A stretch of 64,000 bases of DNA from positions 32,001 to 96,000 of IMG/VR virus record IMGVR_UViG_3300005077_000489. One strand, given 5' to 3'. Of this stretch, positions 9,263-64,000 are shown one piece after another. The translations under genes and the position numbers were made by a program. Numbering within the stretch: position 1 is the first letter of the stretch; every line of letters begins with the position of its first letter. The notes beneath the pieces are model-generated. The model was not told where the DNA came from. It did not search any database and was given only the letters and a program-made list of their open reading frames with translations. The DNA is from a virus. Lineage: Duplodnaviria; Caudoviricetes.

Positions 9263-9263
9263 A

Positions 9264-40721: not shown

Positions 40722-40723
40722 TT

Positions 40724-40996
40724 ATGGCACTAGAAGAGAATAAGTATCAAAAAGATAGTAGAAAAAAATTAGAATATGAATTAGAAAAGATCCAAAAACG
40801 TGCTCAAGGTCAAATACTAGACTATGTTGAAGTAGCCCTTGGAGACCCAGAAAAATTTAAGCCTACTCGGGCTAAAATTAATAGATCAATAAATGAGTTC
40901 ACAAGAGCAATCAAAAAAGAGCTAGAAAGATCTTATACTATAGAATATCAGGCTATAAGTGAAGATATAATTGTAGTGGCTAATAAGTCACGCTAA
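40724..40996 (+). CDS. Hypothetical protein
   Basis: GGAG RBS, 90 aa. Confidence 0.6.
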   Translation: MALEENKYQKDSRKKLEYELEKIQKRAQGQILDYVEVALGDPEKFKPTRAKINRSINEFTRAIKKELERSYTIEYQAISEDIIVVANKSR

Positions 40997-41016
40997 GTAA
41001 AGGAGGAGATAGGATT

Positions 41017-41703: not shown

Positions 41704-41723
41704 TTTCTGTATGGTGTCTAATT

Positions 41724-41748
41724 AGGGTAGCCCGGGCGGCTACCCTTT
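41724..41748 (+). terminator. GC-rich hairpin (weak terminator/attenuator)
   Basis: AGGGTAGCC-cgggc-GGCTACCCT followed by only TT. Confidence 0.45.
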
Positions 41749-41768
41749 CCACATAAAAGGAGGGGCAT

Positions 41769-42902: not shown

Positions 42903-45900
42903 GTGGCAGAAGAATACACCTTTAATATAAAGTTAAAAATAGATGTGGATGATTCTAAGGTATATAAACTAAAAGAATTGTCTGACAAGACTAATGATGT
43001 ACTACGTAACATAAATATGTCCCATGTGAAGGGACTTGGCTCTAGTATGTCTTTTGGGACCAGTGATAAAGACATTCAAGTTTTTAATCGTATCAAACAG
43101 GAAGTACAGAACCTAGAGGGTTATATAGATAGATTAAAGTCTGATCGAATGTTTACTCCCGCCTATATTGATGATGCCACTAAAAAGTTTTCCAAAGATT
43201 ATGATAGAAAGCAACTCAAAGAAGATTTAAAAAAAGAAATGCAGATGGAGCGGGATAGGTTATACCACTCCATTACCCATGCTACAGACAGTATGAAACG
43301 TAGTTTAGAGCAGCAGAGAAAAGAATTTATCGACTTACATAATACCTTAAAGCAAATTAAAAAACCTACCGATATATCTACATTTTCTGGTGAGCGTGTA
43401 ACTCTCAGACCAGAAAGAAGTCTGAAGGAAATGACAGCCCCTGATATTTTTACTCGTGATCTGGAATTAATGATAAATAAATTACTCTTAAAACCGAAGG
43501 CAGAATTAGGGAAAGAAATATTAAAAGTAAAAGAATACATGGATGACGTCTATTCAGAGATTAATACTGCCTTAGATAAGGTGGGTTATGAGTCACATCG
43601 TAGGGCTCAAGAAGAGGTTGGTAGGCTCCGCTTGAAAATAGAGGGACTTGCTACCGCAGGGGATATAGACCAGATAACACGTAATGTAGAATCTTCATTA
43701 AAAAGCGGGGATTTATTAAACCAAGTTAAAAAAATGCGTGAAGAGATAGTGAAAGCATCCACCGAGTTTGCTAAGGAACTGGGTGATGAGACGGATAAAA
43801 CTAGAAAGTCCTTTGCTAATTTTCAACGTAGTATTATTTTTGCCTTTAACAAACCGCAGTTCTTTGACCCCGCTGGAGAACTGTTCAGGGATGTGCAGTC
43901 ACTCAGCCAACGTAAAGGAATTGGTTCCCCTTACGGCGGTCGTTACGTTGGTGCTCCTAGGATTAAGTTTGATGAGGGCGGAATAGCCAAATATGAACTA
44001 TTTGATGTAAAGGCATTGGCAAGAGAAACTGCTAAATTAATGTCAGTAGCCGGGTTAAAGCAAGCCTTGAAGGCTGACCTAGATAGTTCCCTGCAAGATG
44101 CCTTGAACAAATATTTGGATGCTAATAAAATTTCTAAGAAAATAGAAACACTAGTTTCTTATTCTATTAAAGACCTGCAAAAGATACAACTAGATTTGCT
44201 CCGCTTTGCCGAAAAAGAAGTGGCTAGGCGAATTGGTGATGAAGAAACCAAGAGGCGTATAGAAGTATTTAATAAATATTTAGAGAGTATAACAAAACAG
44301 GCACTAGTCCTCCCTTCTATCGCTAAAAGTTCGCGTGGTGCTTCTATTATAAGAGACCCCGAACGTGGAGAATATCTGACTCTCGGTAGATATCTAGAAA
44401 CTAAACCAGGTATTAATGAATTGGATGATAGATTTATCAGACCTTTGTTAGACTATGTTAAACGTATGAATTATCGTACACAAGATATTCCGTCGCAAGT
44501 GAAAAATATTCAACGTACTGTTAAGGATTTCTGGGTAAGATCCCGCCCACAAGAAGAGCATGGTGTTGGGGTTGGTATGGAGTTAGCCGCCAGAGAAATG
44601 GTCGGTAGGATGAAGACAGCTTTTGATACGGTTGGCTCCTTCCTGGAACAGACTAGAGGACCTAAGGCTAGAAGAGCATTAACCGGAATAGATGAACTTA
44701 AGCAGCAATTCATGGTCGATTATGAGAAAGCACTGCGAGAGGCTGTGCGTGCTACTCACGAACGTGTTGCTAAAGAAGAAATAGTTACCGGGGCTAAAAG
44801 ATTACCCCCTGATTTGGAATCTCGTTTTAGGGAAGCCTTGAATTCTTTACAAGGAAAGGGTCCTAGATACCAATTATTACCAGAGCAAGTTGTTGGTTTT
44901 CTAAGGAAGGAATCTGAGAAAGTAGCACGTCAGATAGAATCTTTACCCATTGATAAATTAGAAGATGAATTAAATCGTATTGGACAGAGAGAGAAGAATG
45001 TAGTAGGTGGTACCGATTATGATGCTAGAGCATGGCAACGTGTCCTAGAGGAATTCAGTAGATACCGAAACGTAGATTTTTACAATATGTTAAATCGTGC
45101 TGCTTCTTATTCGAAAGATAGTATAAATGAATTGGAGAAGATACGTAATAGTTTATCTTCAGCCGGTCGCTTAGGAAATGAATCTTATTTTCAAGAATTA
45201 TTGCAACAACAATTTAAGAAGGTTTTTGACCCTATAAAAGAGAAGGTACCTGAAGAGCACGAAGCCATGCAGAAGCATGAGGTCTACGGTCGCCATAAGG
45301 TAATAACAATCCAGCCAAAAATACCTGGAATAGATGCCGGGCCTAGTTCCTACGGTGTTCCTGTCGATTTACAAGCTCTCAGAAGATTTATTGTTCAGAG
45401 AAATCTTGACATGGAAGAACTCTTTGAGAAGGAATATCTGAGGGGTACTGAAGCAGCCATGCGTAAATTAGGTACAACTATTGAGCGTCTTGCTACGGTT
45501 GGATTAAACGAAGCGGCAGCCGCAGGTAAACGAGATTTTGGTGATAAATTCATGGAATCTTTTTTCAGGGGTAAGAGATTACAACCTTTTGCTTCTTATG
45601 ACCCTAGGGAGACCGAGGCTTTTGGTTATTCTATAAACCCAGCTCGCCCCACCGGGGCAGCATGGGACTCCTTGGCTGGTCCAGAGTTTAATGCTATACG
45701 TTCTCGCAAAGCTCATAAATTTATCCGTAGCGGAGAGTGGGGACCGTACGGGACTGGTTTAAATGTTACTACAGTTCTTAAAGATGTTTCTGCTGGTTAT
45801 GAAGATTTATATGAGATAGGTAAAAGGTTACAGGAATTAGCTACGTTTAAATTTAAAAAACTTGTGGTTCCTAACTTGAAAGGCACAGAGGAAGAATTAA

Positions 45901-48900
45901 AAAATAGCGTTGTAAAGTATCTGCAAGAGGTTGGTCATGATATTTTTGGTGCTCCAATTAAATCTAAAGAACTAGCTGATGAAACTTATATAAAGGATAT
46001 AGTTAAGAGATGGGCACAGTCTCCTCAGGGTCCTATAGAAGAAAATATTGTTGAATTAATAAATACCTATTTGGGTCATGAAGCACGTAAGATTTCTACC
46101 GGTCAAGTTCTTAAGGGTGTAGCCTCTACAGCCTTTACTAGATTCGGTACAGAAGTAGAGGAATCGGTCAGGGAAAAAGCTAAAAAAGGATTGTATCCAA
46201 AGATAAAATTTATGGATGTGGGTGAATTATCAGATGTTCCTAAATCATTTGAAGAATTGATATCTGAGTTATTGTTGGTTCGAAAAGATTTAGACCCAGC
46301 AAAAGTTTCTAAGGCTCTAGAGATGATAAAAGGAACTCAAAATATGATTATGATGTCTTCTGACCATTTAAAACAATTAAAAATTAGTCCTATAGAATAT
46401 GGTACTGGTAGAATAATGGGGGAGGATGCTCCGAGCCTAGAGGAGCGTCGTAATTTTGTTGGTAACTTACTTGGTATAAATTTGACCTCAAAAGAAGCTC
46501 TAAGGAGTGCAGGAGATATTACTGCTCAAGTTAAAATGTTAGAGCAAGATATGGAGAGAATAAGAAGGCTATATAAAGAATCTACTGGTGGAGATTTAAA
46601 TAAAGAGGTTCCAGTAGACCTACGGATACTAGCCTCCGGGATAGGGAAGAAGTCACGTATGATCGGGGGTAACTTAGCAGAGATTATCGCAAATAATATT
46701 ATAGGAAACCTACGTTCCAGACCTTTAGAAGGTGAGACGTTAATGGAACAGATACAAAGGTCTCCCCTTGCTAAGGTTCTTGTGGAGAACACCGCCTCTG
46801 GTCGCGAAGTTATGAAATTGGCAGAACTATATAAGGGGGCTTTAGGATTACGTGGGAAGTATGGCGAAGAGTTTATATATAAACAAAATGATGCATTAGA
46901 AAAAGCGGTTGCAGGAATGATGCATGTTATGATTATGAAAGAACCTAAAGGGTGGGTACCTAAAGGTGCGGCCGAATTAGAAGCTGGTTTGTCAAAGATG
47001 ACAATAGATCCGCATGGATGGTTTGGTCTTAAGAAATTGTTTGATCCACAAGGTGCGTTGACACGTGAATTTACCATGCGGGCTTTTCCTGAAGCACGGG
47101 AAGCTGGTGCTTTCTTATCGGCATTTCGTTCATTTGCTAAATTACGTGAAGAAGAGATGACCAGAGCAGTGAAGACGGGAAAAGTTAGAATGGTCGGTGA
47201 AAAGCAATTAGTTGATGAAGACAGAGAAGATTATATTGCTCCTCTTAAAAGAAAGGCGACGGTAGCCGATCTGTCTAGAACTATTTTTGATCCATTTAAA
47301 TACGGACCTTCTATGGCTTTGGAGTTACCGGAGCCATCCGAGGATATGAAACGTTTGATAGAGGAAGAGATTAAAGAAGGAATAAAAAAAGGTATACAAG
47401 TAATGCCGGTCAAACGTTTGGTTGAAATTCCAGAGATTAGTGCACGACAGTATGTGACTTCAGAGACCGGTGAAGTATTACCCTCTACGGTATCCAGGTA
47501 TCTCTCAGAACTGGTGGATGCCACAAGAAAGTATCATATATTAGGTAGCCGAACTAATGATATAAATAAATTAGATATGCAGCGAGAGTTCGTTGGGACC
47601 GCTATTGGAGACTTCTATAATAGGATACATCCTATCAGGGACTTGAGCGTAAAACTTGATTTGCTCAGTAAACTGGAAGAGCAGGTTTTTTCCTTAGTGG
47701 GAAGTAAACCTATGCCACAGTTTTCCGGGAAATCTTCTGTCATCGCTGACGCACAGGACCCGACTAAAGTATGGTTTCCTACTATGTACAGCCGCCTCGA
47801 CGACGAAACAAAGAAATCTTTAGAAGAGGATATGCGTAAAGGTATTTCTATAAAAGATGCTTATAATAAATATTTTAAGGAGTTGGAACAATCAGTTTCT
47901 AATATAAATTTCAGGGCTCGTTTTCTTCGCGACCTTATAACGGGACCTGTAATTTATACTAAAGGAAAAGAGGATATTGGGCGTGAAGTAAAAACAGATA
48001 TATCAGAGGGTAATGATCCCCGCTATCAAAATATTAACCTAGTCCAAGATAAGATGTTATCAGATATTATCACTAACTTCAAACAGTACGAAGCTGAAAC
48101 AGATGCCTACGGGAAAACTATCGGAATAAAGTCTCGTTCTTTATTGGACTTACAGTATAATGAAATAAGACGTAATCTAAAAGAATATTATGATGAATTA
48201 TCTAATATGATATTCGGTAGAGGTATCCTGTCTGATGTAGTTTTGAAGAAGAAGATACCTGCTCTCTACCTGACAGCTCAACAACGACCTTATGACCCTA
48301 GCGAAGCAATAAAATCTGCTATAGACAAGTTAAACAAATTCAAAACAGAGGTTCCCAATGCTGAAGAATTGAAGACGGACTTAGATAAGGCTCTTCGAGA
48401 TGTAGAAACTTTCAAAGTAACAAAACCATCCCAGTGGGTCCGTCCCGGAGAAGTTCGTATAGGCGAGAGAGACCTAAAGGAATTACAAAAAGCGGGAATG
48501 GCTACTCCTGAGTTACAAAAGAGTGTGGATAGTGTTTATGCCTTGATAAATAGGCAGCCTACTACAGATGAATTTAGTTACAAGGCGATGCGGCTTACAG
48601 TGGATGATGCTCTAAAAGACCTGTCTGGAATAGCAGTAGTTCCCGGGTTACCAATAGGCGACTATCCAGTTAGTTCTAAGATGGAAGAGGCTTACAAAGC
48701 GTTAGAGGATTTACGTAGCAAAAAAGTTAAGGCTATAGAAGAAGAACTTTCTAAGTCTAAAGGTAAAATGACTTCTACTGTCACTAAGTTGCAGAGGGAT
48801 ATAGATGAGATAGACCGAGCGTCCAAGGACTTGCGGCCTATGTACCATGAAGCCTCTTTGGGTTTAGATTATGACGGAGATATGATTTCTATTCATGCTG

Positions 48901-51900
48901 CTACTGTAAAAGAAGCAAATGAGGAATTGAAGAGAATTCATGATATGCAGATGAAAGAGTATGGAACCACTAGAAGATTTTTGCATGAACAACTTAGTTA
49001 TGTTCCAGAATCAAAACGTTCTATGGGTGCCAAAGGTACTGAATTATCCGATGAAGAAATTATGGCTGTAGAAAAAATGCGAAGAAGTGCCTCTCCTACA
49101 TGGCAAGAGATGGACATTGTGAGTGACATTTCTAAGCAAGCTAAGAAGAATTTGTTAGATATCCATGCTACTACTCTTCCCGAGATAGCAGAAGATTCAT
49201 TAAAGCACTTTGTACACAAGGTTGATATGGGACAAGGTTATGAGGCTTTTAACCGTATAGGTTTCTTGTATCGTGGTGCCACGGCTAAGGATTTGGGTAT
49301 TACCCCTAAATTACATGAAACTTATAATTTATTATTAGGAGAGTTTTTGCGTGATACAATCCAAAAAGTCATAGGTGGAAAACACGGTTCGGCTGGTTCG
49401 GATATGAGTCCTATAGTGCAACAAGCTTTTTTCACTGGAAATATAGACGCGGTAGTAGATGCCCTGGACAAAGGGGATGGCGGTTGGGGAAGTTTTAAAG
49501 GTCAATCTGGTAGTAATCAACCACTATTTCAAGAGATAGAAGATAATTTAAGAGAATATCGTTTAAGATATCTGAAGCCAATGTCTAGAGATCAAGTAAA
49601 GAAGGAAGCCGAGTCCTATGGTATTTCCACATTTATGAAAGGTAGGGAACAACTAATAGAAGAGATAGTAGGTAAAACCTCTTTCAGAGCGATGTTTGAG
49701 AATGTATTTGACCAAGTAAGACGTATGGCAGTGGCTAATATAAAAGAATTATATCGTACAGGATTGGCAGGAGATTCTTCCTTATCTAAAAAGGGCTCCA
49801 TGGGCCTCGCCAAATTATTGGCTGGTACTGAGGGGTTCGAAGGAGAGACACTACAGACCTTAGGATTAAGAACTAAATTTAAATTTAATGAAGGAGACTT
49901 TGAGGCATTTGTAGACAAACAAGATGTTACTGATAAGATAATGGGAGTGTTGAAGGATAAATTAGGTAATGTCTCCAAACAGGAGATGGCTTTTCAAATA
50001 GCCGCAGCTGGAGAAGGGATTGCCAAGGTTCTACGTGGAGAACCCGGGAAACTAAAGACAGAGATAATAGAGCCAGGGTTTAGTACCGCTGGATTATATC
50101 GCGGTTTACAACCCATGTATAAACTGAAATCTTCCGGCGGGGCGGAGATGGCTGTTAGTTCTTATTCTAAACGCTCCGAAGGAGAAAATCAGTATACCCC
50201 CGGTGGTCCTGCCCTTTCTTATGCAGAAGTATTAGATTATGTATTGCGTAATAAGGCAGGAAAAAATATAGAAGTAGGTCCTTCTTTAGGTACCTTCACT
50301 AACCCGAGAGAGCAAAAAGCCTATGAATTTGTAAGTCCTGCTATTCAAGCCTACGAGGATTTTGAAAAAGCATATAATAAGATTATGTTGGTAATGGACA
50401 AGAACCTGTATGCCTTGGAGGGATTGCTCGCACAAGTACAGACTTTTGGTAAGGAAACCGCGGGTTTTAAAGGTGAATCTGCCAGAGCTGGTCGTTACGT
50501 AATGTATGATAAGGATACGCAACAAGTCTTCCTGGATTCTGCTGTAAAGTCTGCTTTTGAGGATAATAAGCGTGCTCTTTCTTTGGCTAGAAATGCTGGT
50601 GAGGCTAAAGAGGCGGAAGATAAACTTTTTGATACTGTTAGAAGAGTAAATGAATTATTAAAAAGGGGTGCAGCTTTAAAGTTTATAGATATTGATGAAA
50701 GCAGGAGAGCAGACAACCTCAGAAGTACCATAGATAAACTAGCTGACCCTTCTTCTAGATGGTCATTAAAAGTAGATAGTCTACTAGAGAGAATGGTCTA
50801 TGATAAGAAAGAATTCGGGACATTAATACGTAAGTGGTTAGCAGATGTCGGTCGGGGTGATTTATTAGATAGGAGTAATGTGGAGATAACAGCCGAGTTA
50901 AGGAAGCACAAGGGTATAAGGAAGGAAGCTCTAGAAGAAGCAGCATCTTATATAATTTCTGGTAAGGGTAATATAGCAATTGGTTTGAGACCCTTGATTA
51001 GAGATGCACGTTCCGTGGATATAAAGGAAGAGATATCCAAGGGTCTTATAGGGAAGATAAGATCGGAGGACTTCTCAAAATCTTTCTCACCCTTATTTAT
51101 GGAAAGTTGGAAAGAAGCTGTCATGCGTAATGCACAAACATTAAGTGCTTCGGACTGGAGAAGTATTTATAAGGCTCATCCAGTGTTACGAGATATGCAG
51201 GCTCCTGGTACTTCGTCATATGAAGACGTTATTAAACAGTTACGTTCCGAGGGTATTTATGGTGGTAGTCGTGGGGTCACCCATTTTATAAATAATATAT
51301 TGAAAGAAAGACAAGGACAAATTTTAGAGCACCTTGGCGTGGAGAAACCTGAAGATTGGGAAACCCTTAGACTAAGCCAAGTGGAAAATAAAATGAAATC
51401 CGGTATATTAGAGGCGGCGGAATCTACAAGGTGGCCATTCAGACCCCGTGCCGGTGGAGGGGTATATTTAGAGGATATATTGGACAAACCGGTTCACAAA
51501 GTTAGAGAAGATGTGGAAAACATATTTGATAGTGCTTTTGACCTATCCCCGGAAGACTGGAAACAAATATTTAACTTTGATGAAAAGGCACAAAAAATAG
51601 CGATGAATGCTGAAGAGCCCCTGAAGGCTTTATATGAAGCCGGTATGTACGGTGAAAATCGTGGATACACAAGATACATTAATATGATATTTAAGAAACG
51701 TATGGAGCATATTCTAAATGAATTAGGGCAGGAAGCCCCTGATTTCTATACCATGCGTTTCCAAAAATCTAAACAAGAGTTTCTTAGTTCTCTCGAAGAA
51801 GCAGCATTGGATAATTTATTAAAAGGAACTCCGTCAACCGGAGGACCTTTTGGTGGTAAGCGGTTTACTCCCGGAGAGGCTTTTGGGGAGCGGGCACCAG

Positions 51901-57900: not shown

Positions 57901-60900
57901 ATAAAATACTACCGGATTACCTGGATGAATCCAAAAAAGAAGAATTAGCCAATATGCAAAAATGGTTGGTCCGTGGTGGCGTAGTTGGCGGACTATATGG
58001 TGGTATGAAGGTTCCTCTTCAAGGTGGAACACTTTCACGTTTAGTCTCTATGGTCGCGGGTCCTACTCTAGGTTATCTCGGTGCCAAAAAATTAGGAGAT
58101 GTCACGATGGGTCGTGCTTCAGAGAAGGCTAGAGAAGACTATATGGAAAAGACTCTTGGATTTCGATCTTTTTCTCCATTATCTTCACAAGAGAAATGGG
58201 ATATTCCTAGGGAAATACGCGGGGTTACGTCTGAGAAACTCAAAGGAAAAACCTTAGATGAAATAATTTCTACTTTCAAAGAGTTACAATCTGAAACGTT
58301 TAGTGGTAGCAACTTAGATAAGCAGAAACTGTTGACATCACAGAAGGCTGTTACCCAGTTTATGTCCGAGATCTATCTTAGCAGAATTGAAGAGTTGAGA
58401 GATCAACTGAATGTCGCTGCTAAAAGTGGTAATCAGAATTTAATGGCAAAACTCCGAGCAGAGATTGATAGGTATATAGTTTTTTATATAGGGAATGTAC
58501 TCAAGTCTTCTACTGGTGCACACGCAGCCGCCGATGCTTTTAGGGTGCGGTCTATCGGTGGTTTTGTAGGTTCAGAGGACTATGAAGCACGTTCTACAGG
58601 TCGTCCCCAATCTTTCGATGAGGTTATAAGTCTCGATAAATTCTTGGAGAGGGGTCTTAGCGGTGTATCTAGGAAGGCTGTAAATCTATTAAGGAATTTA
58701 TCTGATACGGGTGCTTCTCCAAGGTCTATATATCAAGAAATAATGCCAGGAATTCTGAAGTCTTCTACGAATATCCCAAGAGACGTTACGGCTGTGCATA
58801 CATATTTGAAATCTGTAGTTCATGAACTAGGACAAACCCCAGATGTTAATATAGACCAGTACCGTTATTGGAAGTCATTGGAAGAATATTTCCGGGCCAC
58901 CGCAAAGCAATACAGAGGAAGTAGTCGGTTCGACTTTGGAGATCTACGTTCTGCTGCTCCGATAACACCAGTTGGTTTACGACCGGAGGACCAGGAGACC
59001 TTTAATGCAAAAACTGTAGATTACTATAAAAAAATGTTGCAGGCCAACCCAATGTTTAAGGAGGGTGCTACTGTACCACTAGAACTTAAAGTTACGGATG
59101 AGGCTGGTAATGCTTTAAAAAATATAAGAGTTGACTTAACAAAAACAAAACACGCGGCGGACGGCGTTTCCATGTCCATAACAGATATGAATAAAGTTAT
59201 GGCACAGAAAAACACTCTGTTTGGTGCAGTAGAACTAACTTCTAGATTTATTTTGGCGGGAGCAACTGTGGGTGGGTTAGTTAATGAACTAAGGACTATG
59301 GCTTCCACTATTGCTCAAGTAGAGTCTGGTATGATGGAACTAAGAAAGGTTATGGAACCCTCTATAACCAACTTTGACGAGATACGTAACTCTGCTCTTA
59401 ATATGGCTAAAGAAATGGGTGTTGGTATTAATGATGTCATACAATCTATGGTAGTTTTCGGGCAACAGGGTGATACACAAGCACAAGTAATAGAGAAAGC
59501 GAGAACATCTGTTATGGCTGCCGCTATAACTGATATGAAAGCTGCAGAAGTCACTGAATATCTTACATCTGCGGTAAAGCAATATGGAGAAGAGATAAAG
59601 GAAACACAACGTTTTCTGGATTCTTGGATAAAGGTTGACGTACAGCATGCCATAACGGCTACTGAATTATCCAAAGCAATGCTGCGTGTTGGTTCCGCTG
59701 CTAAAGAAGCTGGAGTCGGTTTCCATGAATTAAATGGTATTGTGACTGGTATTGGCTCTGTTACTAGACAAACCGGTAGAGAAGTTGGTACTGCTCTACG
59801 TTTTATTTTTAGGAATCTCCAAACTACTCAAGTTAAAAACTATTTGCGTAATATACTAAATATTGATACGTTGTTACCGAGCGGTTCTATAAAACCGGCT
59901 ATGAAGATATTTGATGAATTACAGGCAAAATGGCAGAATTTCTCTGATGCTCAAAGGATGCATGTTGCACAATTGGTTTCCGGTGCTAGACATTATAATG
60001 CTTTTCTAGCAATGATGAATAACTACTCAGAAGTATTAACTGCTACACAAGATTCTATACACTCTGAAGGTTATGCTCAAGCTCGTTTGAATATGCAAAT
60101 GGATACGCTAACTAAGAAACTAGCACAAGTCAGAGCGGCTTCAGAAAGATTATATGTTGACTTTGGTAAACTAGCCCTGGGTCCAATGAAACTCGTAGCG
60201 GATGCCACAACTTCTATGATTACTGCTTTTACTCTAATCCCTGATACTGTAAAACAAGCTATATTAGCATTAGGTACTTTTGCCGCTTTTTCCGGTAAAA
60301 TAGAAAGTGTTATTTCCGGTTTGCAAAATTTTGGGGTGGCTAGCGGTATGTCAGATACCTTTTCTAATTTTATGTCTTTTGCTACCTCCCCAATTTCTTC
60401 AGTAATGAAAGCGTTCTCTTCTGTTCAGGGGGTCTCTGGGTTATCAGAGGTAACAACTACATTAGGAAAGATGGCATTCATTGGTATCTCTGCTGGTAGA
60501 TCTTTTAATAGTTTGTTCAGCAGTATAGGCAAAGGCGCAGGAATTGCCCTTGGTTCTGTGTCACTACTCGCTGCTGCAGTTGGAGCTCTGAGTGATTCAC
60601 ACACAGGAATGTTTAAATTGGCTGGTGCTTTCGGGCTTATAGGAGCTTCTGCTCTTATTAGCAGCGGTATTATAGGGTCCCTAAGCGGCTCCACTACAGG
60701 TTTTATTGGTTCCTTAGCACCTCTGGCTGTAATTGCTACTGTTATCTATAAAAACTGGGATAAGTTATCAGACGTTTTTGGCGGAGTAGGAAATAGTATA
60801 GAACGTTTACAGAAACAGACTGAAGGTATAGGGAGTATCACTAGCAAGCGTTTAGAAATTAGTGAAATAACTACAATATTTGGTAAGGCGAACTTATTAG

Positions 60901-63900
60901 GGAGAGGTCTCAGGGAAGCCAGAGTATCATTATCATCTTCCCAAGGCTTAGCAGAGGAACGCGACAGAGTCTTAGGAAGTATGGGCGAAGAGAGTTCTTA
61001 TAAGTCTTTAGTGTCCAGACAGATAGAATTCAATGATTTACAGAGCAAGGCTCTTAATAAAAGTATAGAATTATTACCCCAATTAGCCGATGGTTATGAT
61101 GCCTTTGGTAATGCCATAATGAATACAAATATAAATGCCAGAATCCTCCTGGAGACTATGGATGACCAATTGCGTGTAGCACAAGACATGGAAAAAGTTG
61201 ACTTAGCTAAGTTAATGACAGAAAAATTATTTCCTGTCGATTCGGTAGGGAAAACAATAAGAGATAGTTTACGTTCTATTTTGAGTATAATTCCTAGTGC
61301 GGGAGAACAATGGGCGGAAGCATTATTCCCTTCCTCTGCCTTTGAGAAACAGCAGCGTTTACTAACAAAGATGGGTGGGCAGAGAGAAATGGCTTCTCTA
61401 TATGGTAATATACCGATGCCACCCTTTATGTCTAATTCTCTAAAACAAATGCATCGGGAATTAACAAAAGTAAATTCCGAATTAGATGTGGAACTTAAGA
61501 AAATAGGAGATAGATTACTTTCCGTAAGCAGGGAGACTTCCCCCAAACAATTCCTAGATATGTTGGCACAACCGGAGTTCGATAAATATTTAGAAGTGTC
61601 TGGTGGTAGAAATATGCATATTCAAAGGCAATTAGCTGATGAATTCTTTGGTGGAAATGTAGGAGAATTGCAACGTGCATTACTACCTACTACCAGTGAG
61701 CCAAGAGCACTATGGAGACGCCGCGAGTTTGGTATCACTGGTGGCGGTATAGCGGATGCTTTGGGATTACCTAGTTCTTATAGAGTTAAATCTCCAGTAA
61801 GAGACCCGTTTGGTAGTGCTTACAGGGAGCTATCCAGTCCTACAAGATATATGTTAGAACAGTTCAATCCACAAATAGTTTCTATTGGTCAGTGGTTAAA
61901 TGATGGATATAATGCTTTAGGGCAAACTGTTACGGAGTCTTTTATAGGGGCACTAAAAACAGCCTTCAAAGCCCTTGATGTTACTGAACGAATCTCTAGA
62001 GAAGTCGGGGTAACATTATCAATGATAGGAGAACAAGGTGGATTACGACAAACATTTGTTTTGATTGGTAAAGATATTCAAGCGATAGCACTTACTATAA
62101 AAGAGTCCTTTCTCAGAAGTATTGATGATTTGGGGGCAATGGTTTCTCGCGGTGCCAGAGCAATAGCAGGGGACGAAATAGCTAATGCATTTAATAAGTG
62201 GGTAGAAGAAGCAACCAAGAATACAAAAATTGCCATAGACTCATGGATAATATGGTCTAAATCTGCAGGACAAGCAATACAACGCTCTTCTTTTGGGAGA
62301 GAATATAGTAATATCACCGCAGGTGGTAATCTGGGAGACATATATTCCAGGGCTAGTACTAAGGGTATGTTGGGAGATGTATATGCTGGTTTTGGAAATG
62401 TACGAACTGCTATTAGTGACCAGTGGTGGACCGGGAAAACATTTCCTATACAGGGTTATAGACCACCAGAATATAATTGGTGGCGTAGTGGGTATGAAAG
62501 GCGTATAGGTATAAATAAACCTGAACAAGTTTTTAGTGTAGATGTAGCATCTCTATTTACCAAGGGTTTAGGTTCTGACTTCTTGTCTACTATTCTTACC
62601 TCAATAAGCCCGTCACTTAATTTGCTTATTCGATCTAGGTATCAAGCAACTCCGCAAGAAACATATGCTAGGGAGCAAGCGGAGATGGCACGCGGAGAAG
62701 CACCGGGTTACTACACTCCTCCTAGAGAGATGTACCTTAGAAGAGACTTGAATGCTCTTGGAGTAACCGCTGTCTTAGATGAAATAAGTGTTGCATTAAC
62801 ATCCTTCTCTACTATGTGGAGAGACTACGGCGATATAATGCGGCAAGAGTACGGTTTTATACCTGAAGGACTAAAGACATTAAAGAATATGTGGCTACTT
62901 GGTGTCAAAGAGACTGGTTATAGTGCATATGAGACAACTACACAAGAGGTTCTTCCTAATATGATGAAGATATATCCTCCACTTCATCTTACATATAATT
63001 TGATGAAGCCAATGAAAGAATTCGTAGAGTATTTGACCTTTATTCCTGCAGCTATAAAAACTGTGGCTGGTGAAGTAGTAAAAGCTGGTGGAGTATATAT
63101 GCAGGGTAGAAAAGAAGTCGGAATAGAACTAGAACCAATATTTTCTATCTTAGAGAAATATCTTGGAGGAGTTGCTGCCCCCGCTGGGTTCCTCTCTGTA
63201 GACATAATGCGACTCTTGTCCAGGATATTTGTTGATTATCCGAAGGATGAGATTACTAAAAGAATAGTGGAGAAGGAAATTGCACCAGGGGAATTTGGAC
63301 CTAGGAAATCTTTCGGTCAGCTAAGTTTCAGAGAATTATTTACATATTTAGTTACAGGAGTTCGACCCTCTGCTCCTGGTACTGTTCCTACTGTAGTAAC
63401 TCCTGGTGTACGTGCTCCTACACCTGCCGAAAGGGCGGAAGAGACGGCAAGGAGACAAGCAATAACAGATGAGAATTGGAGAAGGCGAAGAGACCGCGGT
63501 GAAAGAATAGTTGACGATTGGATGGAAAGTTGGAGAAATGCTACTGTGAGTACCAGTAGGGCACTTGCTTCTTGGTCTGATATAGTTATGGCTTTCTCCA
63601 ATGATGTAGGAATTTCTATAAAAGATGTGTCTGGTATGGCGAGAGAATACATATCGCAAGTTCAGGGTAATCAAACTAAATATACCAAACAAGTACGTTC
63701 TTTTGTAGAGCAAGCATATGACAATTTATTGAATACTTCTATTAAAGCATATCAGAACGTACAAACGGCACCTATTAGAGAAATGTATGATAAAATAGTA
63801 GGACAAATTTCTGACAGGATTTCTACCGCTACAGAAGGTATAGACACTACTGCTCTGAGAGAGGGTATAAGTAAGTATATGAATAAGGCGGTAGAAGGGG

Positions 63901-64000
63901 GTAGAACGGGTACCACGGAGCTCTCCAAAATATTACAAGAACAGGGTATAGATGTTTCTAAGTTATCTGCTGATAGATTACAACCTATAGTTGATCTTAT
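42903..64000 (+). CDS. Giant tape-measure polyprotein (at least 7030 aa, incomplete at window end) with RNA polymerase, ligase, phosphoesterase, RNase H, GNAT and zincin domains
   Basis: GTG 42903 with GGAG 10 nt upstream; MAEEYTFNIKLKIDVD start. No stop found in the many segments hand-translated up to 64000, and the track lists no terminated long ORF here. Domains are listed below. Confidence 0.9.
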   Translation, partial: MAEEYTFNIKLKIDVDDSKVYKLKELSDKTNDVLRNINMSHVKGLGSSMSFGTSDKDIQVFNRIKQEVQNLEGYIDRLKSDRMFTPAYIDDATKKFSKDYDRKQLKEDLKKEMQMERDRLYHSITHATDSMKRSLEQQRKEFIDLHNTLKQIKKPTDISTFSGERVTLRPERSLKEMTAPDIFTRDLELMINKLLLKPKAELGKEILKVKEYMDDVYSEINTALDKVGYESHRRAQEEVGRLRLKIEGLATAGDIDQITRNVESSLKSGDLLNQVKKMREEIVKASTEFAKELGDETDKTRKSFANFQRSIIFAFNKPQFFDPAGELFRDVQSLSQRKGIGSPYGGRYVGAPRIKFDEGGIAKYELFDVKALARETAKLMSVAGLKQALKADLDSSLQDALNKYLDANKISKKIETLVSYSIKDLQKIQLDLLRFAEKEVARRIGDEETKRRIEVFNKYLESITKQALVLPSIAKSSRGASIIRDPERGEYLTLGRYLETKPGINELDDRFIRPLLDYVKRMNYRTQDIPSQVKNIQRTVKDFWVRSRPQEEHGVGVGMELAAREMVGRMKTAFDTVGSFLEQTRGPKARRALTGIDELKQQFMVDYEKALREAVRATHERVAKEEIVTGAKRLPPDLESRFREALNSLQGKGPRYQLLPEQVVGFLRKESEKVARQIESLPIDKLEDELNRIGQREKNVVGGTDYDARAWQRVLEEFSRYRNVDFYNMLNRAASYSKDSINELEKIRNSLSSAGRLGNESYFQELLQQQFKKVFDPIKEKVPEEHEAMQKHEVYGRHKVITIQPKIPGIDAGPSSYGVPVDLQALRRFIVQRNLDMEELFEKEYLRGTEAAMRKLGTTIERLATVGLNEAAAAGKRDFGDKFMESFFRGKRLQPFASYDPRETEAFGYSINPARPTGAAWDSLAGPEFNAIRSRKAHKFIRSGEWGPYGTGLNVTTVLKDVSAGYEDLYEIGKRLQELATFKFKKLVVPNLKGTEEELKNSVVKYLQEVGHDIFGAPIKSKELADETYIKDIVKRWAQSPQGPIEENIVELINTYLGHEARKISTGQVLKGVASTAFTRFGTEVEESVREKAKKGLYPKIKFMDVGELSDVPKSFEELISELLLVRKDLDPAKVSKALEMIKGTQNMIMMSSDHLKQLKISPIEYGTGRIMGEDAPSLEERRNFVGNLLGINLTSKEALRSAGDITAQVKMLEQDMERIRRLYKESTGGDLNKEVPVDLRILASGIGKKSRMIGGNLAEIIANNIIGNLRSRPLEGETLMEQIQRSPLAKVLVENTASGREVMKLAELYKGALGLRGKYGEEFIYKQNDALEKAVAGMMHVMIMKEPKGWVPKGAAELEAGLSKMTIDPHGWFGLKKLFDPQGALTREFTMRAFPEAREAGAFLSAFRSFAKLREEEMTRAVKTGKVRMVGEKQLVDEDREDYIAPLKRKATVADLSRTIFDPFKYGPSMALELPEPSEDMKRLIEEEIKEGIKKGIQVMPVKRLVEIPEISARQYVTSETGEVLPSTVSRYLSELVDATRKYHILGSRTNDINKLDMQREFVGTAIGDFYNRIHPIRDLSVKLDLLSKLEEQVFSLVGSKPMPQFSGKSSVIADAQDPTKVWFPTMYSRLDDETKKSLEEDMRKGISIKDAYNKYFKELEQSVSNINFRARFLRDLITGPVIYTKGKEDIGREVKTDISEGNDPRYQNINLVQDKMLSDIITNFKQYEAETDAYGKTIGIKSRSLLDLQYNEIRRNLKEYYDELSNMIFGRGILSDVVLKKKIPALYLTAQQRPYDPSEAIKSAIDKLNKFKTEVPNAEELKTDLDKALRDVETFKVTKPSQWVRPGEVRIGERDLKELQKAGMATPELQKSVDSVYALINRQPTTDEFSYKAMRLTVDDALKDLSGIAVVPGLPIGDYPVSSKMEEAYKALEDLRSKKVKAIEEELSKSKGKMTSTVTKLQRDIDEIDRASKDLRPMYHEASLGLDYDGDMISIHAATVKEANEELKRIHDMQMKEYGTTRRFLHEQLSYVPESKRSMGAKGTELSDEEIMAVEKMRRSASPTWQEMDIVSDISKQAKKNLLDIHATTLPEIAEDSLKHFVHKVDMGQGYEAFNRIGFLYRGATAKDLGITPKLHETYNLLLGEFLRDTIQKVIGGKHGSAGSDMSPIVQQAFFTGNIDAVVDALDKGDGGWGSFKGQSGSNQPLFQEIEDNLREYRLRYLKPMSRDQVKKEAESYGISTFMKGREQLIEEIVGKTSFRAMFENVFDQVRRMAVANIKELYRTGLAGDSSLSKKGSMGLAKLLAGTEGFEGETLQTLGLRTKFKFNEGDFEAFVDKQDVTDKIMGVLKDKLGNVSKQEMAFQIAAAGEGIAKVLRGEPGKLKTEIIEPGFSTAGLYRGLQPMYKLKSSGGAEMAVSSYSKRSEGENQYTPGGPALSYAEVLDYVLRNKAGKNIEVGPSLGTFTNPREQKAYEFVSPAIQAYEDFEKAYNKIMLVMDKNLYALEGLLAQVQTFGKETAGFKGESARAGRYVMYDKDTQQVFLDSAVKSAFEDNKRALSLARNAGEAKEAEDKLFDTVRRVNELLKRGAALKFIDIDESRRADNLRSTIDKLADPSSRWSLKVDSLLERMVYDKKEFGTLIRKWLADVGRGDLLDRSNVEITAELRKHKGIRKEALEEAASYIISGKGNIAIGLRPLIRDARSVDIKEEISKGLIGKIRSEDFSKSFSPLFMESWKEAVMRNAQTLSASDWRSIYKAHPVLRDMQAPGTSSYEDVIKQLRSEGIYGGSRGVTHFINNILKERQGQILEHLGVEKPEDWETLRLSQVENKMKSGILEAAESTRWPFRPRAGGGVYLEDILDKPVHKVREDVENIFDSAFDLSPEDWKQIFNFDEKAQKIAMNAEEPLKALYEAGMYGENRGYTRYINMIFKKRMEHILNELGQEAPDFYTMRFQKSKQEFLSSLEEAALDNLLKGTPSTGGPFGGKRFTPGEAFGERAPENIRRASRGFVPADYPHIKPIYDFPKFLDTESSVQYKSHGDQVKMSAVPLRWGNIEIGYGTKNKPLDPATANARYRPFIEATQDLVPVMKDWVKENKHRIDLYGEFGGLKDKLVWFDAKVANKTLSPDDFKKLAEELNLKTTEELYRGPVTKEIVDKVYRQVTPFRKLEEGVVAKGLEIDERTGFPRMAKFKTKPYLVGEETRYPWQDWGSAERKIEERHKKLMERAFSPFDNIEEGIEQDPTRSFTPTEAQRREGLYPENWPVVETTKKRVEEYLKGLDDKFYQSAERAKEFPKGTKFLVQAPGVEPIPSYAKDAVVISKEELRKTIFGKGMPDLPYDPVLVLNSRRQVPRYPEAIPISKERGFMFPGEAKEGDVGRFVIHQHDALRAGPHHDMRIELGGQLQSWAVPEFIPEKMGERRLAIGPTAHHAIDYYQKGDYDIPKGFYGAGHMSTFDTGKATVESVKEGYVTVRLEGVKGLADGTYSIIKYEPKGEDTRKGQWLVSKVRPLSERDPERAKKLYGFSPSIELDDELGAGEGRYGQGNIRLFTPGNRAEMRAFMNVLQHEKGHAAIDFAAPNIARDIMAGKQFPGVDTKKLQSYYMQKYGDRGDDEEAAANALEEAIAGGLRTDEDQEILDEISKLQDVIGEKAGMAFAGTSPQNELSYIRKLFSPVQQPYTVYTDAGSRGNPGPGGAGAVVFDPQGKKVSELSRYLGETTSMAAEYQGLIMGLEEALKHSAKNIQLKSDSQVMVGQMREEFRVKNEQIKELKRQADLLKAQFEGFNIDYIPREQNKLADKLANRAMDSYLKSYSPAEDDVDRFGSPIIYDYNKLTSSPNWLPRGMTAKAVSAAVNGQFIGAASYSTASPEYTGFGELSIKPEYRRSSRVAGNLMEKVIIDLINSGNFKHTRPLTPVADTPEAISFWESIIKRTQKPSRNIKEAFLANNVTPDDLSMVAGRLQAEIDITKASKFTDVIKRIIEEPHNLGEELSKLTETNQAKVIRATQAVLAKTNDASYPKIGIKPTAFSEGLDFKSKLRSEITSLYNYGKEGAKLFFGSSGSGSSITEFTKNIARGIWDDLGRLGKFSLGTMRGLRAYAPVEDLVRSGEIKIDDTPFRARGLTSERVRNYLGRGYAVGMGGGGNIYMPPDIIQSYQNATGGLKQQYGQSIMKTYFHEKRHLDIDAAPEKIKEKWRQLASDKNTDIGKLVSSFINEAMLSTSRDVYKKQFEDAQKKYGENIGSDFLNSFAARWEALQEIIAGHPEMRSASSNQQLVQKIRSDFYGDVNKPIPGFGPSASAFSPNLTDYKNFKNIKKGYEEESDTGLLHKKKVALKFGIPPLKGLLGEDIDISESLQYLMHPAMRERRLMGLPQRMIDSRNPYLAGMLRKGFGAGAGLSLEGELGVGPYKVELGGVGFGRYGKKDEEFFADKPSEIIGLSSLEPVKRPIDYVGLSPGAEHGLLAALRANTNALLRSSFITKDMPVGLLPTIMQDITKAYRVPATDETLGSAFRKFFGGTYDLAKGTMKGAIGLPYTLIKSPLDIFKSGKDTDSRFWTGVGQQFNGISAGLSELSTYKSGAFLDTDLKSAYSTKSKSIYDIKNIVDMEYDKLVRKLEFGLAVMEPADLKRNISDVFTAYSDTMDNMFKNPSKALAEEAAKQKAILESVLGNQWETPPATQRLIRGGATLGHGVSSIYNRLLKTLEEIGYATGGVGKGVGYLATHPKDILPGIMSSIRGLLPGKDITGVGLLGETSRQLEQIYGTGMLRTSDVVKLAGYGVSPEQKVGGLLSRASKYQPVTAADRAMREVLGLRETGAIVGDITNTKGILGALGHVVVKPISAIGETMTDMGKAFGSFNLVEMVKAPLIGLLKLAPVIGHTVAGVQEFREEVEKGASPYTSFVSEVGEQIIEGITIALGAAAGTRVGRPAAAGLASIGGRGPMAAAKYLPIATGIIGSILGGIGGGRIGESFEKGMFSMVGQTSPKSVARSIWEQERDKRSLEEEGLDKILPDYLDESKKEELANMQKWLVRGGVVGGLYGGMKVPLQGGTLSRLVSMVAGPTLGYLGAKKLGDVTMGRASEKAREDYMEKTLGFRSFSPLSSQEKWDIPREIRGVTSEKLKGKTLDEIISTFKELQSETFSGSNLDKQKLLTSQKAVTQFMSEIYLSRIEELRDQLNVAAKSGNQNLMAKLRAEIDRYIVFYIGNVLKSSTGAHAAADAFRVRSIGGFVGSEDYEARSTGRPQSFDEVISLDKFLERGLSGVSRKAVNLLRNLSDTGASPRSIYQEIMPGILKSSTNIPRDVTAVHTYLKSVVHELGQTPDVNIDQYRYWKSLEEYFRATAKQYRGSSRFDFGDLRSAAPITPVGLRPEDQETFNAKTVDYYKKMLQANPMFKEGATVPLELKVTDEAGNALKNIRVDLTKTKHAADGVSMSITDMNKVMAQKNTLFGAVELTSRFILAGATVGGLVNELRTMASTIAQVESGMMELRKVMEPSITNFDEIRNSALNMAKEMGVGINDVIQSMVVFGQQGDTQAQVIEKARTSVMAAAITDMKAAEVTEYLTSAVKQYGEEIKETQRFLDSWIKVDVQHAITATELSKAMLRVGSAAKEAGVGFHELNGIVTGIGSVTRQTGREVGTALRFIFRNLQTTQVKNYLRNILNIDTLLPSGSIKPAMKIFDELQAKWQNFSDAQRMHVAQLVSGARHYNAFLAMMNNYSEVLTATQDSIHSEGYAQARLNMQMDTLTKKLAQVRAASERLYVDFGKLALGPMKLVADATTSMITAFTLIPDTVKQAILALGTFAAFSGKIESVISGLQNFGVASGMSDTFSNFMSFATSPISSVMKAFSSVQGVSGLSEVTTTLGKMAFIGISAGRSFNSLFSSIGKGAGIALGSVSLLAAAVGALSDSHTGMFKLAGAFGLIGASALISSGIIGSLSGSTTGFIGSLAPLAVIATVIYKNWDKLSDVFGGVGNSIERLQKQTEGIGSITSKRLEISEITTIFGKANLLGRGLREARVSLSSSQGLAEERDRVLGSMGEESSYKSLVSRQIEFNDLQSKALNKSIELLPQLADGYDAFGNAIMNTNINARILLETMDDQLRVAQDMEKVDLAKLMTEKLFPVDSVGKTIRDSLRSILSIIPSAGEQWAEALFPSSAFEKQQRLLTKMGGQREMASLYGNIPMPPFMSNSLKQMHRELTKVNSELDVELKKIGDRLLSVSRETSPKQFLDMLAQPEFDKYLEVSGGRNMHIQRQLADEFFGGNVGELQRALLPTTSEPRALWRRREFGITGGGIADALGLPSSYRVKSPVRDPFGSAYRELSSPTRYMLEQFNPQIVSIGQWLNDGYNALGQTVTESFIGALKTAFKALDVTERISREVGVTLSMIGEQGGLRQTFVLIGKDIQAIALTIKESFLRSIDDLGAMVSRGARAIAGDEIANAFNKWVEEATKNTKIAIDSWIIWSKSAGQAIQRSSFGREYSNITAGGNLGDIYSRASTKGMLGDVYAGFGNVRTAISDQWWTGKTFPIQGYRPPEYNWWRSGYERRIGINKPEQVFSVDVASLFTKGLGSDFLSTILTSISPSLNLLIRSRYQATPQETYAREQAEMARGEAPGYYTPPREMYLRRDLNALGVTAVLDEISVALTSFSTMWRDYGDIMRQEYGFIPEGLKTLKNMWLLGVKETGYSAYETTTQEVLPNMMKIYPPLHLTYNLMKPMKEFVEYLTFIPAAIKTVAGEVVKAGGVYMQGRKEVGIELEPIFSILEKYLGGVAAPAGFLSVDIMRLLSRIFVDYPKDEITKRIVEKEIAPGEFGPRKSFGQLSFRELFTYLVTGVRPSAPGTVPTVVTPGVRAPTPAERAEETARRQAITDENWRRRRDRGERIVDDWMESWRNATVSTSRALASWSDIVMAFSNDVGISIKDVSGMAREYISQVQGNQTKYTKQVRSFVEQAYDNLLNTSIKAYQNVQTAPIREMYDKIVGQISDRISTATEGIDTTALREGISKYMNKAVEGGRTGTTELSKILQEQGIDVSKLSADRLQPIVDL
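45750..46720 (+). other. RNA polymerase beta-like double-psi barrel (within the giant ORF)
   Basis: GLNVTTVLKDVSAGYEDLYEIGKR (cf. GQN..VAFMPWNGYNFEDS); KISTGQVLKGVA (cf. KMAGRHGNKGVI, both Lys, same spacing); VPVDLRILASGIGKKSRMIGGNLAE (cf. [22 protein letters not shown]). Confidence 0.8.
47400..48900 (+). other. RNA polymerase beta-prime-like barrel with catalytic aspartates (within the giant ORF)
   Basis: LSNMIFGRGILSDVVLKKKI (cf. [21 protein letters not shown]); LINRQPT at 48543 (cf. LLNRAPT); LGLDYDGDMISIHA with DYDGD at 48867-48881 (cf. YNADFDGDQMAVHV). Confidence 0.88.
51920..52500 (+). other. ATP-dependent ligase-type nucleotidyltransferase, RNA-ligase-like (within the giant ORF)
   Basis: Motif I QYKSHG (Lys at 52008), III LYGEF, IIIa VWFD, IV EEGVVAK, V MAKFKT; no OB domain recognised after motif V. 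Confidence 0.8.
53025..53420 (+). other. LigD-type 3'-phosphoesterase domain (within the giant ORF)
   Basis: FVIHQHDALRAGPHHDMRIELGGQLQSWAVP...RRLAI..TAHHAIDY...IPKGFYGAG..STFDTG aligns with the LigD PE consensus FVVQKH..RLHYDFRLE..GVLKSWAVP..KRLA..EDHPLDY..IP.G.YGAG.V..WD.G. Confidence 0.9.
53430..53800 (+). other. Zincin-like metallopeptidase domain 1 (within the giant ORF)
   Basis: VLQHEKGHAA at 53592-53606; downstream EEAAANA. Confidence 0.55.
53925..54315 (+). other. RNase HI domain (within the giant ORF)
   Basis: YTDAGSRGNPGPGGAG, AEYQGLIMGLEEAL, KSDSQVMVGQM, IPREQNKLADKLAN; four acidic residues at 53943, 54063, 54135, 54285. Confidence 0.93.
54400..54700 (+). other. GNAT-like acetyltransferase domain (within the giant ORF)
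   Basis: VNGQFIGAA..., LSIKPEYRRSSRVAGNLM (motif A-like), EAISFWES. Confidence 0.55.
55250..55680 (+). other. Zincin-like metallopeptidase domain 2 (within the giant ORF)
   Basis: GNIYM strand, then TYFHEKRHL at 55416-55430; downstream EALQE. Confidence 0.45.
59230..60240 (+). other. TP901-family tape-measure core (within the giant ORF)
   Basis: VESGMMELRKVM..FDEIRNSALNMAKEMGV..DVIQSM..FGQQG..., ELSKAMLRVGSAAKEAGVGFHELNG, VGTALRFIF, AQLVSGARHYNAFLAMMNNY; further TMP-like LLPQLADGYDAFGNAI near 61070. Confidence 0.88.

Follow-up and report, generated by a model that had tools for sequence, protein, structure and literature searches.

A reading frame that opens at GTG 42903 of a 64,000-nucleotide stretch of phage DNA, and is still open where that stretch ends, raises the question of whether it is a single gene and what kind of protein it would encode. 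The stretch (the window in what follows) comprises bases 32001-96000 of the 211,229-bp IMG/VR virus record IMGVR_UViG_3300005077_000489 (Duplodnaviria; Caudoviricetes), for which CheckV gives a completeness of 86%. A sequence-only reading of the window had proposed a hidden polyprotein of at least 7000 residues, in which a tape measure is fused to an RNA polymerase (RNAP), a ligase, a phosphoesterase, RNase H, a GNAT domain and peptidases. The follow-up analysis favours, at a probability of about 0.68, the reading of a tail tape-measure gene, in a very divergent huge phage, that has expanded to encode a 'polyvalent' protein of 13,616 residues with a virion-delivered RNAP and RNA-repair enzymes. 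The tail would probably be of the long, non-contractile type.

Extent and integrity of the giant frame

The open reading frame (ORF) listing of the window gives the frame as 42903..63998 on the plus strand, with a GTG start, 7,032 codons and an open 3' end. On the full record it runs from genome position 74903 to a TAG at 115751-115753, a total of 13,616 codons over 40.8 kb with 0 N, and no earlier in-frame stop splits it. The frame that had been seen to run off the window was thus confirmed, and its real length is about twice the minimum that had been proposed.

Base composition predicts ~973 in-frame stops in this frame and none is seen (P ~1e-438), and the two alternative frames carry ~90-100 stops per 1,000 codons. 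Codon-position GC content is even along all 40.8 kb (GC1 ~0.50, GC2 0.35-0.49, GC3 0.25-0.32). Reassignment of a stop codon was considered and rejected, since TAA, TAG and TGA each terminate other genes of this genome and the standard code therefore applies. The nearest upstream in-frame stop lies one codon before GTG 42903, a GGAG is found ~10 nt upstream of the GTG, and the N-terminus of the protein can be aligned with its homologues from residue 1.

A search of other genomes for the same architecture, as the sequence-only reading had suggested, yielded homologous open frames in three other uncultured phage contigs. The three contigs come from IMG/VR and Joint Genome Institute (JGI) metagenomes. 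Two of the frames are full-length: one of 14,711 residues in a 545,322-bp record rated 100% complete and one of 12,315 residues in a 256,335-bp record rated 97% complete. The third, on an 82-kb contig, is open for at least 3,143 residues, up to the end of the fetched locus. The present protein and its two full-length relatives (the three giants) are collinear. Identity to the 14,711- and 12,315-residue relatives is 63% and 48%, respectively, over residues 1-3819, and the tape-measure core block is ~40-58% identical among the giants. The region aa ~6250-11250 is poorly conserved and rich in insertions and deletions, and the last ~2,100 residues, within a C-terminal region at aa ~11500-13616, are conserved again.

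The metagenome origin of the contig brings in the possibility that the giant ORF is an artefact of assembly or gene calling, that is, a chimeric contig or several genes joined by sequencing errors. Such errors would have had to spare all of the ~973 stops expected in 13,616 codons, and three further independent assemblies, at 48-66% identity, keep both the frame and its collinearity. A homologous frame that is open in four assemblies at this divergence excludes an assembly artefact and indicates selection for one continuous frame. This explanation is already effectively refuted and retains next to no probability.

The tape-measure core and the RNA-polymerase-like module

The identity of the protein as a tape measure is carried by its central part, where the sequence-only reading had recognized a TP901-type core at ~aa 5450-5780. 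PF10145 matches aa 5496-5690 (E 1.1e-25, 91 bits against a cut-off of 33.2), and phrog_4211 matches aa 5447-5887 (E 9.7e-61) together with 14 other tape-measure PHROGs, which puts the core at aa ~5450-5890. The transmembrane (TM) segments of that reading were also recovered, as hydrophobic TM-like segments downstream of the core; beyond the three that follow it directly, others lie at aa ~8225-8294, 8787 and 10149. Pfam and PHROGs searches of aa 1-2600 and 7033-13616 gave no match besides a weak, sub-threshold Baculo_PEP_C, and a PDB search of aa 7033-12031 gave none.

The most conserved part of the protein lies far upstream of this core, in a module of ~1,400 residues that resembles the multisubunit RNAPs. 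Among 1.84 billion representatives, an exhaustive HMMER search found only six relatives. One of them (P0007, ~26% identical) led to a second, distant lineage of tape-measure-linked proteins, all with the motif LDFDGDxIxxH. Members of this lineage are ~23-28% identical, and their RNAP-like module is fused to or adjoins PF10145 tape-measure proteins.

The evidence is strongest for the C-terminal, beta'-type half. PF00623 (Rpb1 domain 2) has two candidates genome-wide. Both fall within the giant ORF, one at NRQP and the other at DYDGD, and their order in the profile is the same as in the protein. PF00623 is also the sole recurrent family among 24,736 Pfam families, being found in six of nine members with a best E of 0.0086, all below the family cut-off. 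When the NADFDGD block of E. coli rpoC was searched against the giants, the DYDGD site was the top match in all three, and 0-1 of 200 shuffles scored as high. Similarly, a hidden Markov model (HMM) of the two-lineage family beat 500 of 500 shuffles against rpoC, at residues 456-479. This half contains R1884-x-P1886-T and a predicted metal site, D1989-Y-D-G-D1993-x4-H1998 (nt 48867-48896), and D1989-Y-D-G-D-x4-H is invariant across the family alignment. An EF-hand was considered for DxDGD and rejected; loop positions 6, 8 and 12 are unfit, and the His at +5 matches beta'.

Structure prediction points in the same direction. A first AlphaFold2 (AF2) model of aa 940-2139, made from a nine-row alignment, reached a predicted local distance difference test (pLDDT) score of 51 and was uninformative, its Foldseek and VIA matches being only helical bundles. 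With an 18-row two-lineage alignment the pLDDT was 65.5, and aa ~1400-1980 reached 80-93. RNAP largest subunits or phage RNAPs make up ~28 of the new model's top 50 Foldseek PDB matches, compared with 1 of 50 for the poor model; the phage enzymes include the phi14:2 gp66 virion RNAP and the non-virion RNAPs of AR9 and PhiKZ. In the VIA alignment all 50 top entries are RNAP largest subunits (beta', A', Rpb1, A190, C160 and plastid), with Z 8.8-9.8 over 211-270 residues. Model residues 484-1098 are placed on E. coli beta' ~24-497, with DYDGD falling on NADFDGD. Matches of the model in BFVD are crAss-like giants (virion RNAPs) and gp66. Homology of the C-terminal half to cellular RNAP beta', in predicted fold and in catalytic motif, is thus supported.

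Other searches of this region were negative. No Pfam or PHROG match above threshold was obtained in the RNAP-like region, the family HMM found no RNAP among all PDB sequences, tblastn of the region against 50,697 phage records gave no match, and the ESM atlas search gave no usable one. The E. coli beta' NRAPTLH block was not significant against the whole giants or against the 1,100 aa upstream of DYDGD. A second, non-virion RNAP was not found in this genome.

For the N-terminal, beta-type half the argument is one of invariant residues. Catalytic equivalents had been predicted beforehand from the present protein alone (E967/D968, K1063, K1071, R1252, R1884 and D1989/1991/1993), and all nine are strictly invariant in the two-lineage alignment, against a background of 5.0% of positions and 3.9% of charged ones. 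With each motif counted once, the probability of such invariance is ~6e-5 for the three beta motifs and ~9e-8 for all five. The invariant residues of the beta half are E967-D968, R1062-K1063-x7-K1071-G-V and P1237-x-D1239...K1249..R1252-x7-E1260. Local spacing is as in E. coli (K-x7-K-G-V; P-x-D-x11-13-R-x7-E; R-x-P-T; D-x-D-G-D-x4-H), and aa 751-1000 are the most conserved stretch of the protein, with 89% identity to the 14,711-residue relative.

Much of what weighs against the overall reading concerns this module. A PF00562 search of the genome gave 0 candidates for a beta-type barrel, hmmscan found no Pfam family recurrent in the beta half, and hhalign of that half against rpoB gave no match. 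The GYNFED, K-x7-K and PVD-SRM blocks of E. coli beta, compared with the giants and with the 1,100 aa upstream of DYDGD, did not beat shuffles, and the region is unfolded in both AF2 models. In the beta' half the VIA matches have a root-mean-square deviation of 13-15 Å with middling Z, and no Foldseek match has E < 1e-3. The closest known system is gp96 of Thermus phage P23-45, a 5,002-aa tape-measure protein with an N-terminal virion RNAP at aa 327-1124 (PMC10770324); hhalign of the present family against the gp96 family (residues 1-1200) aligned the DFDGD stretch only, with a probability of 2.2%. This last negative is a weak one, since the P23-45 authors likewise found no similarity beyond the Asp motif until the structure was solved (PMC10770324).

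The statistical and structural support is therefore confined to the beta' half, with the beta barrel undetected, the likeness to gp96 stopping at the motif and AF2 confidence around DYDGD itself modest. These same facts would suit a module that is not a polymerase, such as a beta'-like structural or DNA-binding scaffold that has diverged, or a different metal-dependent enzyme in which the Asp triad is kept. What makes this quite unlikely is that the residues invariant across the two lineages are the RNAP hallmark set (ED; K-x7-KGV; PxD..R-x7-E; RxPT; DxDGD-x4-H) in native order and local spacing, that conservation within the protein is highest in this module, and that virion RNAPs are its closest viral structures. 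A single-chain two-barrel RNAP is hence likely rather than proven. The two-barrel RNAP that the sequence-only reading had placed at ~aa 950-2000 stands for its beta' half, on motif, Pfam and structure; its beta half, argued for by the invariant residues, is putative, and no significant similarity to gp96 was recovered.

In two contigs of the distant lineage the junction between the RNAP-like module and the tape measure is broken in the gene calls. At L023:16400-16640 (JGI 3300002231, an 85-kb contig), P0008 (2,174 aa, RNAP-like) and P0013 (1,580 aa, a PF10145 tape-measure protein) are adjoining called genes. They become one frame through a single -1/+2 shift in the A-rich GAATTTAAACAAAGTCC, and DFDGD lies six residues into P0013; the shift may reflect an indel from sequencing or else programmed frameshifting. 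At L024:3455-17569 (JGI 3300009702, a 55-kb contig), ORFs of 1,840, 311 and 2,522 aa lie in one frame, are split only by single in-frame TAGs and together contain the RNAP-like module, DFDGD and PF10145, which suggests TAG read-through or recoding in that phage. These junctions indicate that the fusion of RNAP and tape measure is older and wider than gene calls suggest. Another member of the lineage, P0011 (partial, 2,529 aa), has an RNase_T (PF00929) exonuclease domain beside the RNAP-like module. It comes from an NCBI metagenome-assembled genome labelled Candidatus Thorarchaeota, so that either the assignment of the contig to an Asgard archaeon is questionable or this lineage infects archaea.

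Accessory enzymes and proposed delivery of the chain

Between the RNAP-like module and the tape-measure core lies a series of smaller domains (see the table), whose order in the sequence-only reading was essentially right wherever it could be tested. Its ligase-type nucleotidyltransferase (~aa 3000-3200), LigD-type phosphoesterase (~aa 3380-3500) and RNase HI (~aa 3680-3800) were all recovered by profile searches. The RNA ligase is matched by PF09414 at aa 3033-3176 (29.6 bits, cut-off 27), and its motifs I (YKSHG; K3036-S-H-G), III (GE[FW]GG), IIIa (WFDAK), IV (EGVVAK) and V (KxKTK) are invariant in all three giants. The LigD 3'-phosphoesterase is matched by PF13298 at aa 3381-3485 (E 4e-16, 59.5 bits), with PDB relatives 3p43, 3p4h and 3n9b (E 1e-14 to 4e-11) and 2lj6. 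Its residues HxHDA-R-x4-HHDxRxE and HHxxDY are conserved in the three giants, and the canonical VEDH segment has Ala in place of Glu. RNase HI is matched by PF13456 (E 1e-23, 84 bits) and PF00075 (E 5e-12, 46.6 bits) at aa 3675-3801, as well as by phrog_531 and PDB 3hst (E 2e-24), and the D-E-D-D tetrad is kept in the giants (TDAGS / AEY / SDS / ADKLAN). The catalytic motifs of the three enzymes are intact and conserved, and their activity is predicted.

The GNAT domain and the peptidases fared less evenly. In the GNAT slot the ten best family-bearing matches of the ESM-feature atlas search are all GNAT (score 0.91), with 152-161 shared features, below 170. No Pfam match was obtained there at E <= 0.01, and the slot is variable, being missing in the 12,315-residue relative and filled with unrelated sequence in the 14,711-residue one. 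The GNAT assignment is a language-model lead specific to this genome. All three giants retain the two HExxH motifs, HEKGH 3564 and HEKRH 4172, each of which sits in one of two paralogous modules ~130-190 aa long. HExxH and a downstream A-x-x-E-x-x-A-G, a gluzincin-like pattern, are invariant in six paralogous copies. The motifs of the proposed peptidases thus held up; their peptidase nature drew no support from Pfam or PDB profiles. Between the RNAP-like module and the ligase, a ~90-residue internal duplication can be seen by eye at aa ~2740-2830 and ~2880-2960 (window ~51120-51780), with the pattern ...DW..I......YGG.RG.T.[FY]IN.I.K.R...IL..LG...P...

Table. Features of the giant open reading frame, with positions in the window.
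Feature	Residues (aa)	Window position	Strand	Evidence or remark
Giant ORF	first 7,032/13,616 codons	42903..64000	+	end at genome 115753 = would-be window coordinate 83753
N-terminal charged, helical region	1-~650	42903..44849	+	no recognisable domain; 33-52% identical among three giants
Putative beta-type half of RNAP-like module	~650-1400	44850..47102	+	invariant residues
Beta'-type half of RNAP-like module	~1413-2027	47139..48983	+	motif, Pfam, structure model
RNA ligase (Rnl2-like nucleotidyltransferase)	~3033-3190	51999..52472	+	PF09414, motifs
LigD-type 3'-phosphoesterase	~3368-3514	53004..53444	+	PF13298, PDB relatives
HExxH module 1	~3535-3668	53505..53906	+	HEKGH 3564, downstream ALEEAIAG; putative minimal gluzincin
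RNase HI	~3675-3808	53925..54326	+	PF13456, PF00075, phrog_531, PDB 3hst
Variable slot with possible GNAT	~3815-4000	54345..54902	+	atlas feature search
HExxH module 2	~4105-4290	55215..55772	+	HEKRH 4172; RWEALQEIIAGHPEM; paralogue of module 1
Tape-measure core (TP901/PhageMin_Tail type)	~5447-5887	59241..60563	+	PF10145, phrog_4211
Three hydrophobic TM-like segments	5875-5948	60525..60746	+	directly after tape-measure core
Start of long helical/Gly-rich region	~6250-11250	60750..64000	+	continues beyond window

A feature common to the enzymes and the tape-measure part is the depletion of cysteine. The giant has eight Cys in 13,616 aa (0.06%), all after residue 12,283, i.e. within the last ~1,330 residues. 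Elsewhere in the phage proteome Cys makes up 1.38%, and 0.9-1.6% in the phage's other giant proteins; at the background frequency, a stretch of 12,000 residues would be free of Cys with a probability of ~1e-72. The two full-length relatives have two Cys each, members of the distant lineage 0-1 and P23-45 gp96 none. A CxC is common to the present protein (~aa 12284) and the 14,711-residue relative (~aa 11927). The enzymes share this depletion with the tape part, which speaks for a common fate of the entire chain. The near-absence of Cys along 12,283 residues is compatible with unfolded passage through a narrow channel or with an oxidising compartment.

The chain also contains more [FY]-S-P motifs than expected, with 11 sites against 2.5 +/- 1.6 in the present protein and 11 against 2.4 in the 14,711-residue relative. 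Seven of them lie at aa 2728, 3227, 3522, 3669, 3809, 4296 and 5090 (window ~51084-58175), and four more are beyond the window. Several occur at conserved domain boundaries, namely after the ligase, after the phosphoesterase, before RNase H and after the second HExxH module. The motifs may mark processing sites.

By analogy with other tape-measure proteins and with gp96, the whole chain would be built into the lumen of the tail, from which infection would release it into the envelope and cytoplasm of the cell. Its head-proximal N-terminal part would exit last, together with the DNA end, and the RNAP module would transcribe the first-entering DNA. The ligase and phosphoesterase ('heal and seal') would mend RNA or nicked ends after cleavage by host nucleases, RNase H would remove RNA:DNA hybrids, and the zincin-like HExxH modules might cut the chain into separate enzymes at the [FY]-S-P linker motifs.

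Further points are to be set beside those already counted against the tape-measure reading. Ejection, processing and enzymatic activity are inferred. [FY]-S-P is not enriched in the 12,315-residue relative, and the HExxH modules matched no known peptidase family among Pfam and PDB profiles. On the flanking ORFs, PHROGs and Pfam identified no tail tube, sheath, chaperone or baseplate gene. At 1.5 Å per residue the whole chain would span a tail of 2.0 µm, and the part from the core onward (aa ~5450-13616) one of 1.2 µm. A tail of 1.2-2.0 µm is unprecedented, so the particle may hold a portion of the chain folded or at another site.

That the measuring part by itself already corresponds to a tail of ~1.2 µm also bears on a different proposal, in which the ORF is a polyprotein or a substitute for an operon. 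The N-terminal enzymes would then be cut off, or separately initiated, in the infected cell and act as non-virion early or middle enzymes, and only the tape-measure core and the C-terminus would enter the tail. Cleavage is suggested by the enrichment of [FY]-S-P at domain boundaries and by the two HExxH modules, and the RNAP-like module is called as separate ORFs in distant relatives. Those 'separate' ORFs, however, connect through one frameshift or through in-frame TAGs, and the fusion is kept in four genomes. Moreover, the giant ORF is in the late virion module, with terminase and portal genes upstream on the same strand, so that its product would come too late for early functions unless it were packaged. 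The N-terminal enzymes are also as depleted of Cys as the tape-measure part, a trait seen in none of the phage's other large proteins, and the fused RNAP of P23-45 is a virion enzyme (PMC10770324). Enzymes confined to the infected cell are for these reasons unlikely, and packaging of the whole chain as part of the tail is preferred.

A bolder form of the packaged-chain reading is tentative. It takes the protein as a ~1.5-MDa self-processing vehicle that would pass unfolded through a tail of >1 µm and be cut at [FY]-S-P by its own zincins, freeing a virion RNAP, a repair pair, RNase H and a swappable effector (GNAT here). If this were true, the DNA would be transcribed and host RNA-cleaving defences undone before any phage gene is expressed, and the protein would be the largest phage protein described.

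Genomic context, known systems and significance

The sequence-only reading had the giant gene follow tail tube and chaperone genes. This was not recovered, as the eight ORFs upstream (window 35054-42878) have no PHROG match and no Pfam match above threshold, and the sheath family PF04984 is absent from the genome. Two genes upstream, a 325-aa ORF at window 39744-40718 gives a sub-threshold Sulfotransfer_2 match (E 0.0018, profile 5-251 of 252), which is odd for a tail-gene position. The nearest cultured terminases, at ~25% identity, are those of the Bacillus phages Staley, Slash and Stills, which are presumably siphophages. Homing-endonuclease-like genes (phrog_4645 / HNH with a helix-turn-helix) occur among the structural genes, at window 6636-7940 and 18942-19988 and at L003:4198-5151; one such insertion lies between the portal and downstream virion genes and one ~4 kb after the giant ORF. 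On the same strand, the phage has four further very large ORFs with normal Cys content, of 4,741 aa (genome 124195-138420), 3,141 aa (160882-170307), 2,187 aa (170232-176795) and 1,892 aa (152538-158216). The 4,741-aa ORF shares a domain (phrog_16348/17517, tail protein) with a 1,090-aa ORF at window 23353-26622.

Among known systems, P23-45 gp96 is the nearest. Both proteins are giant tape measures in tail-gene position, with a DxDGD single-chain RNAP-like module N-terminal to the measuring part; gp96 has no Cys and the present protein almost none, and in both the Asp motif is the only sequence likeness of the RNAP part to cellular RNAPs. The present protein is 2.7 times longer, and its module is at aa ~650-2030 compared with 327-1124 in gp96. 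Its core is of the PF10145 type, whereas gp96 has no detectable core and carries an M23 peptidase (Pfam). Also, gp96 does not have the RNA ligase, LigD-type phosphoesterase, RNase H, paired HExxH modules or variable GNAT slot. In the titles and abstracts of the searched literature that mentions both terms, no fusion of a tape measure and a virion RNAP was evident outside P23-45 and its relatives.

Similarly, the virion RNAPs of crAss-like phages (phi14:2 gp66, PDB 6vr4) are single-chain two-barrel enzymes, as is predicted here, in or fused to giant proteins. No other viral structures match the model better, but the matches are weak (E 0.003-0.2). In contrast to the present case, crAss-like phages are podovirus-like and their RNAP is capsid or muzzle cargo rather than part of a tape measure.

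Polyvalent proteins (Iyer et al. 2017, PMC5512222; PMC7824862) are likewise very large, multidomain and encoded among virion genes, with unrelated enzymes and a variable effector slot. They also have zincin-like HExxH modules, which are proposed to autoprocess the chain; for the present protein, delivery and processing would follow by analogy. The carriers of the polyvalent proteins described are of the MuF, portal, DarB or N4 virion RNAP type, and 'tape measure' is absent from the paper (Iyer et al. 2017, PMC5512222). Its authors never saw their own 2H phosphoesterases with RNA ligases (Iyer et al. 2017, PMC5512222), whereas the ligase here is paired with a LigD-type phosphoesterase. This pairing is that of end-healing and sealing systems (T4 Pnk with Rnl1/Rnl2; bacterial LigD phosphoesterase with ligase), in that an Rnl2-like KxHG nucleotidyltransferase stands by a 3'-end-healing phosphoesterase with complete catalytic residues. 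Unlike those systems, the pair is fused into a virion structural protein and no kinase domain was detected. Possible substrates are tRNA, mRNA and DNA nicks whose ends are 3'-phosphates or ribonucleotides.

So far, a virion RNAP fused to a tape measure has been known from one small group of Thermus phages, and unrelated huge phages would now be seen to use the same strategy. Either the fusion has more than one origin, or it has diverged past recognition. RNA-repair and RNase H enzymes have never before been reported in a tape measure, and the 'polyvalent protein' concept would be extended to the tail tape measure. The frameshift and in-frame TAGs found at the same fusion in the distant lineage indicate that gene callers routinely break such genes, which are therefore probably under-reported. 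The conserved, Cys-free and extremely divergent two-barrel polymerase that is predicted here offers material for the study of the minimal RNAP core. A physical question is raised as well, namely how a 13,616-residue chain fits into and leaves a tail. For the biology of large phages, the protein provides a testable case of phages that, from the very start of infection, would be free of host transcription and would forestall defences directed at RNA.

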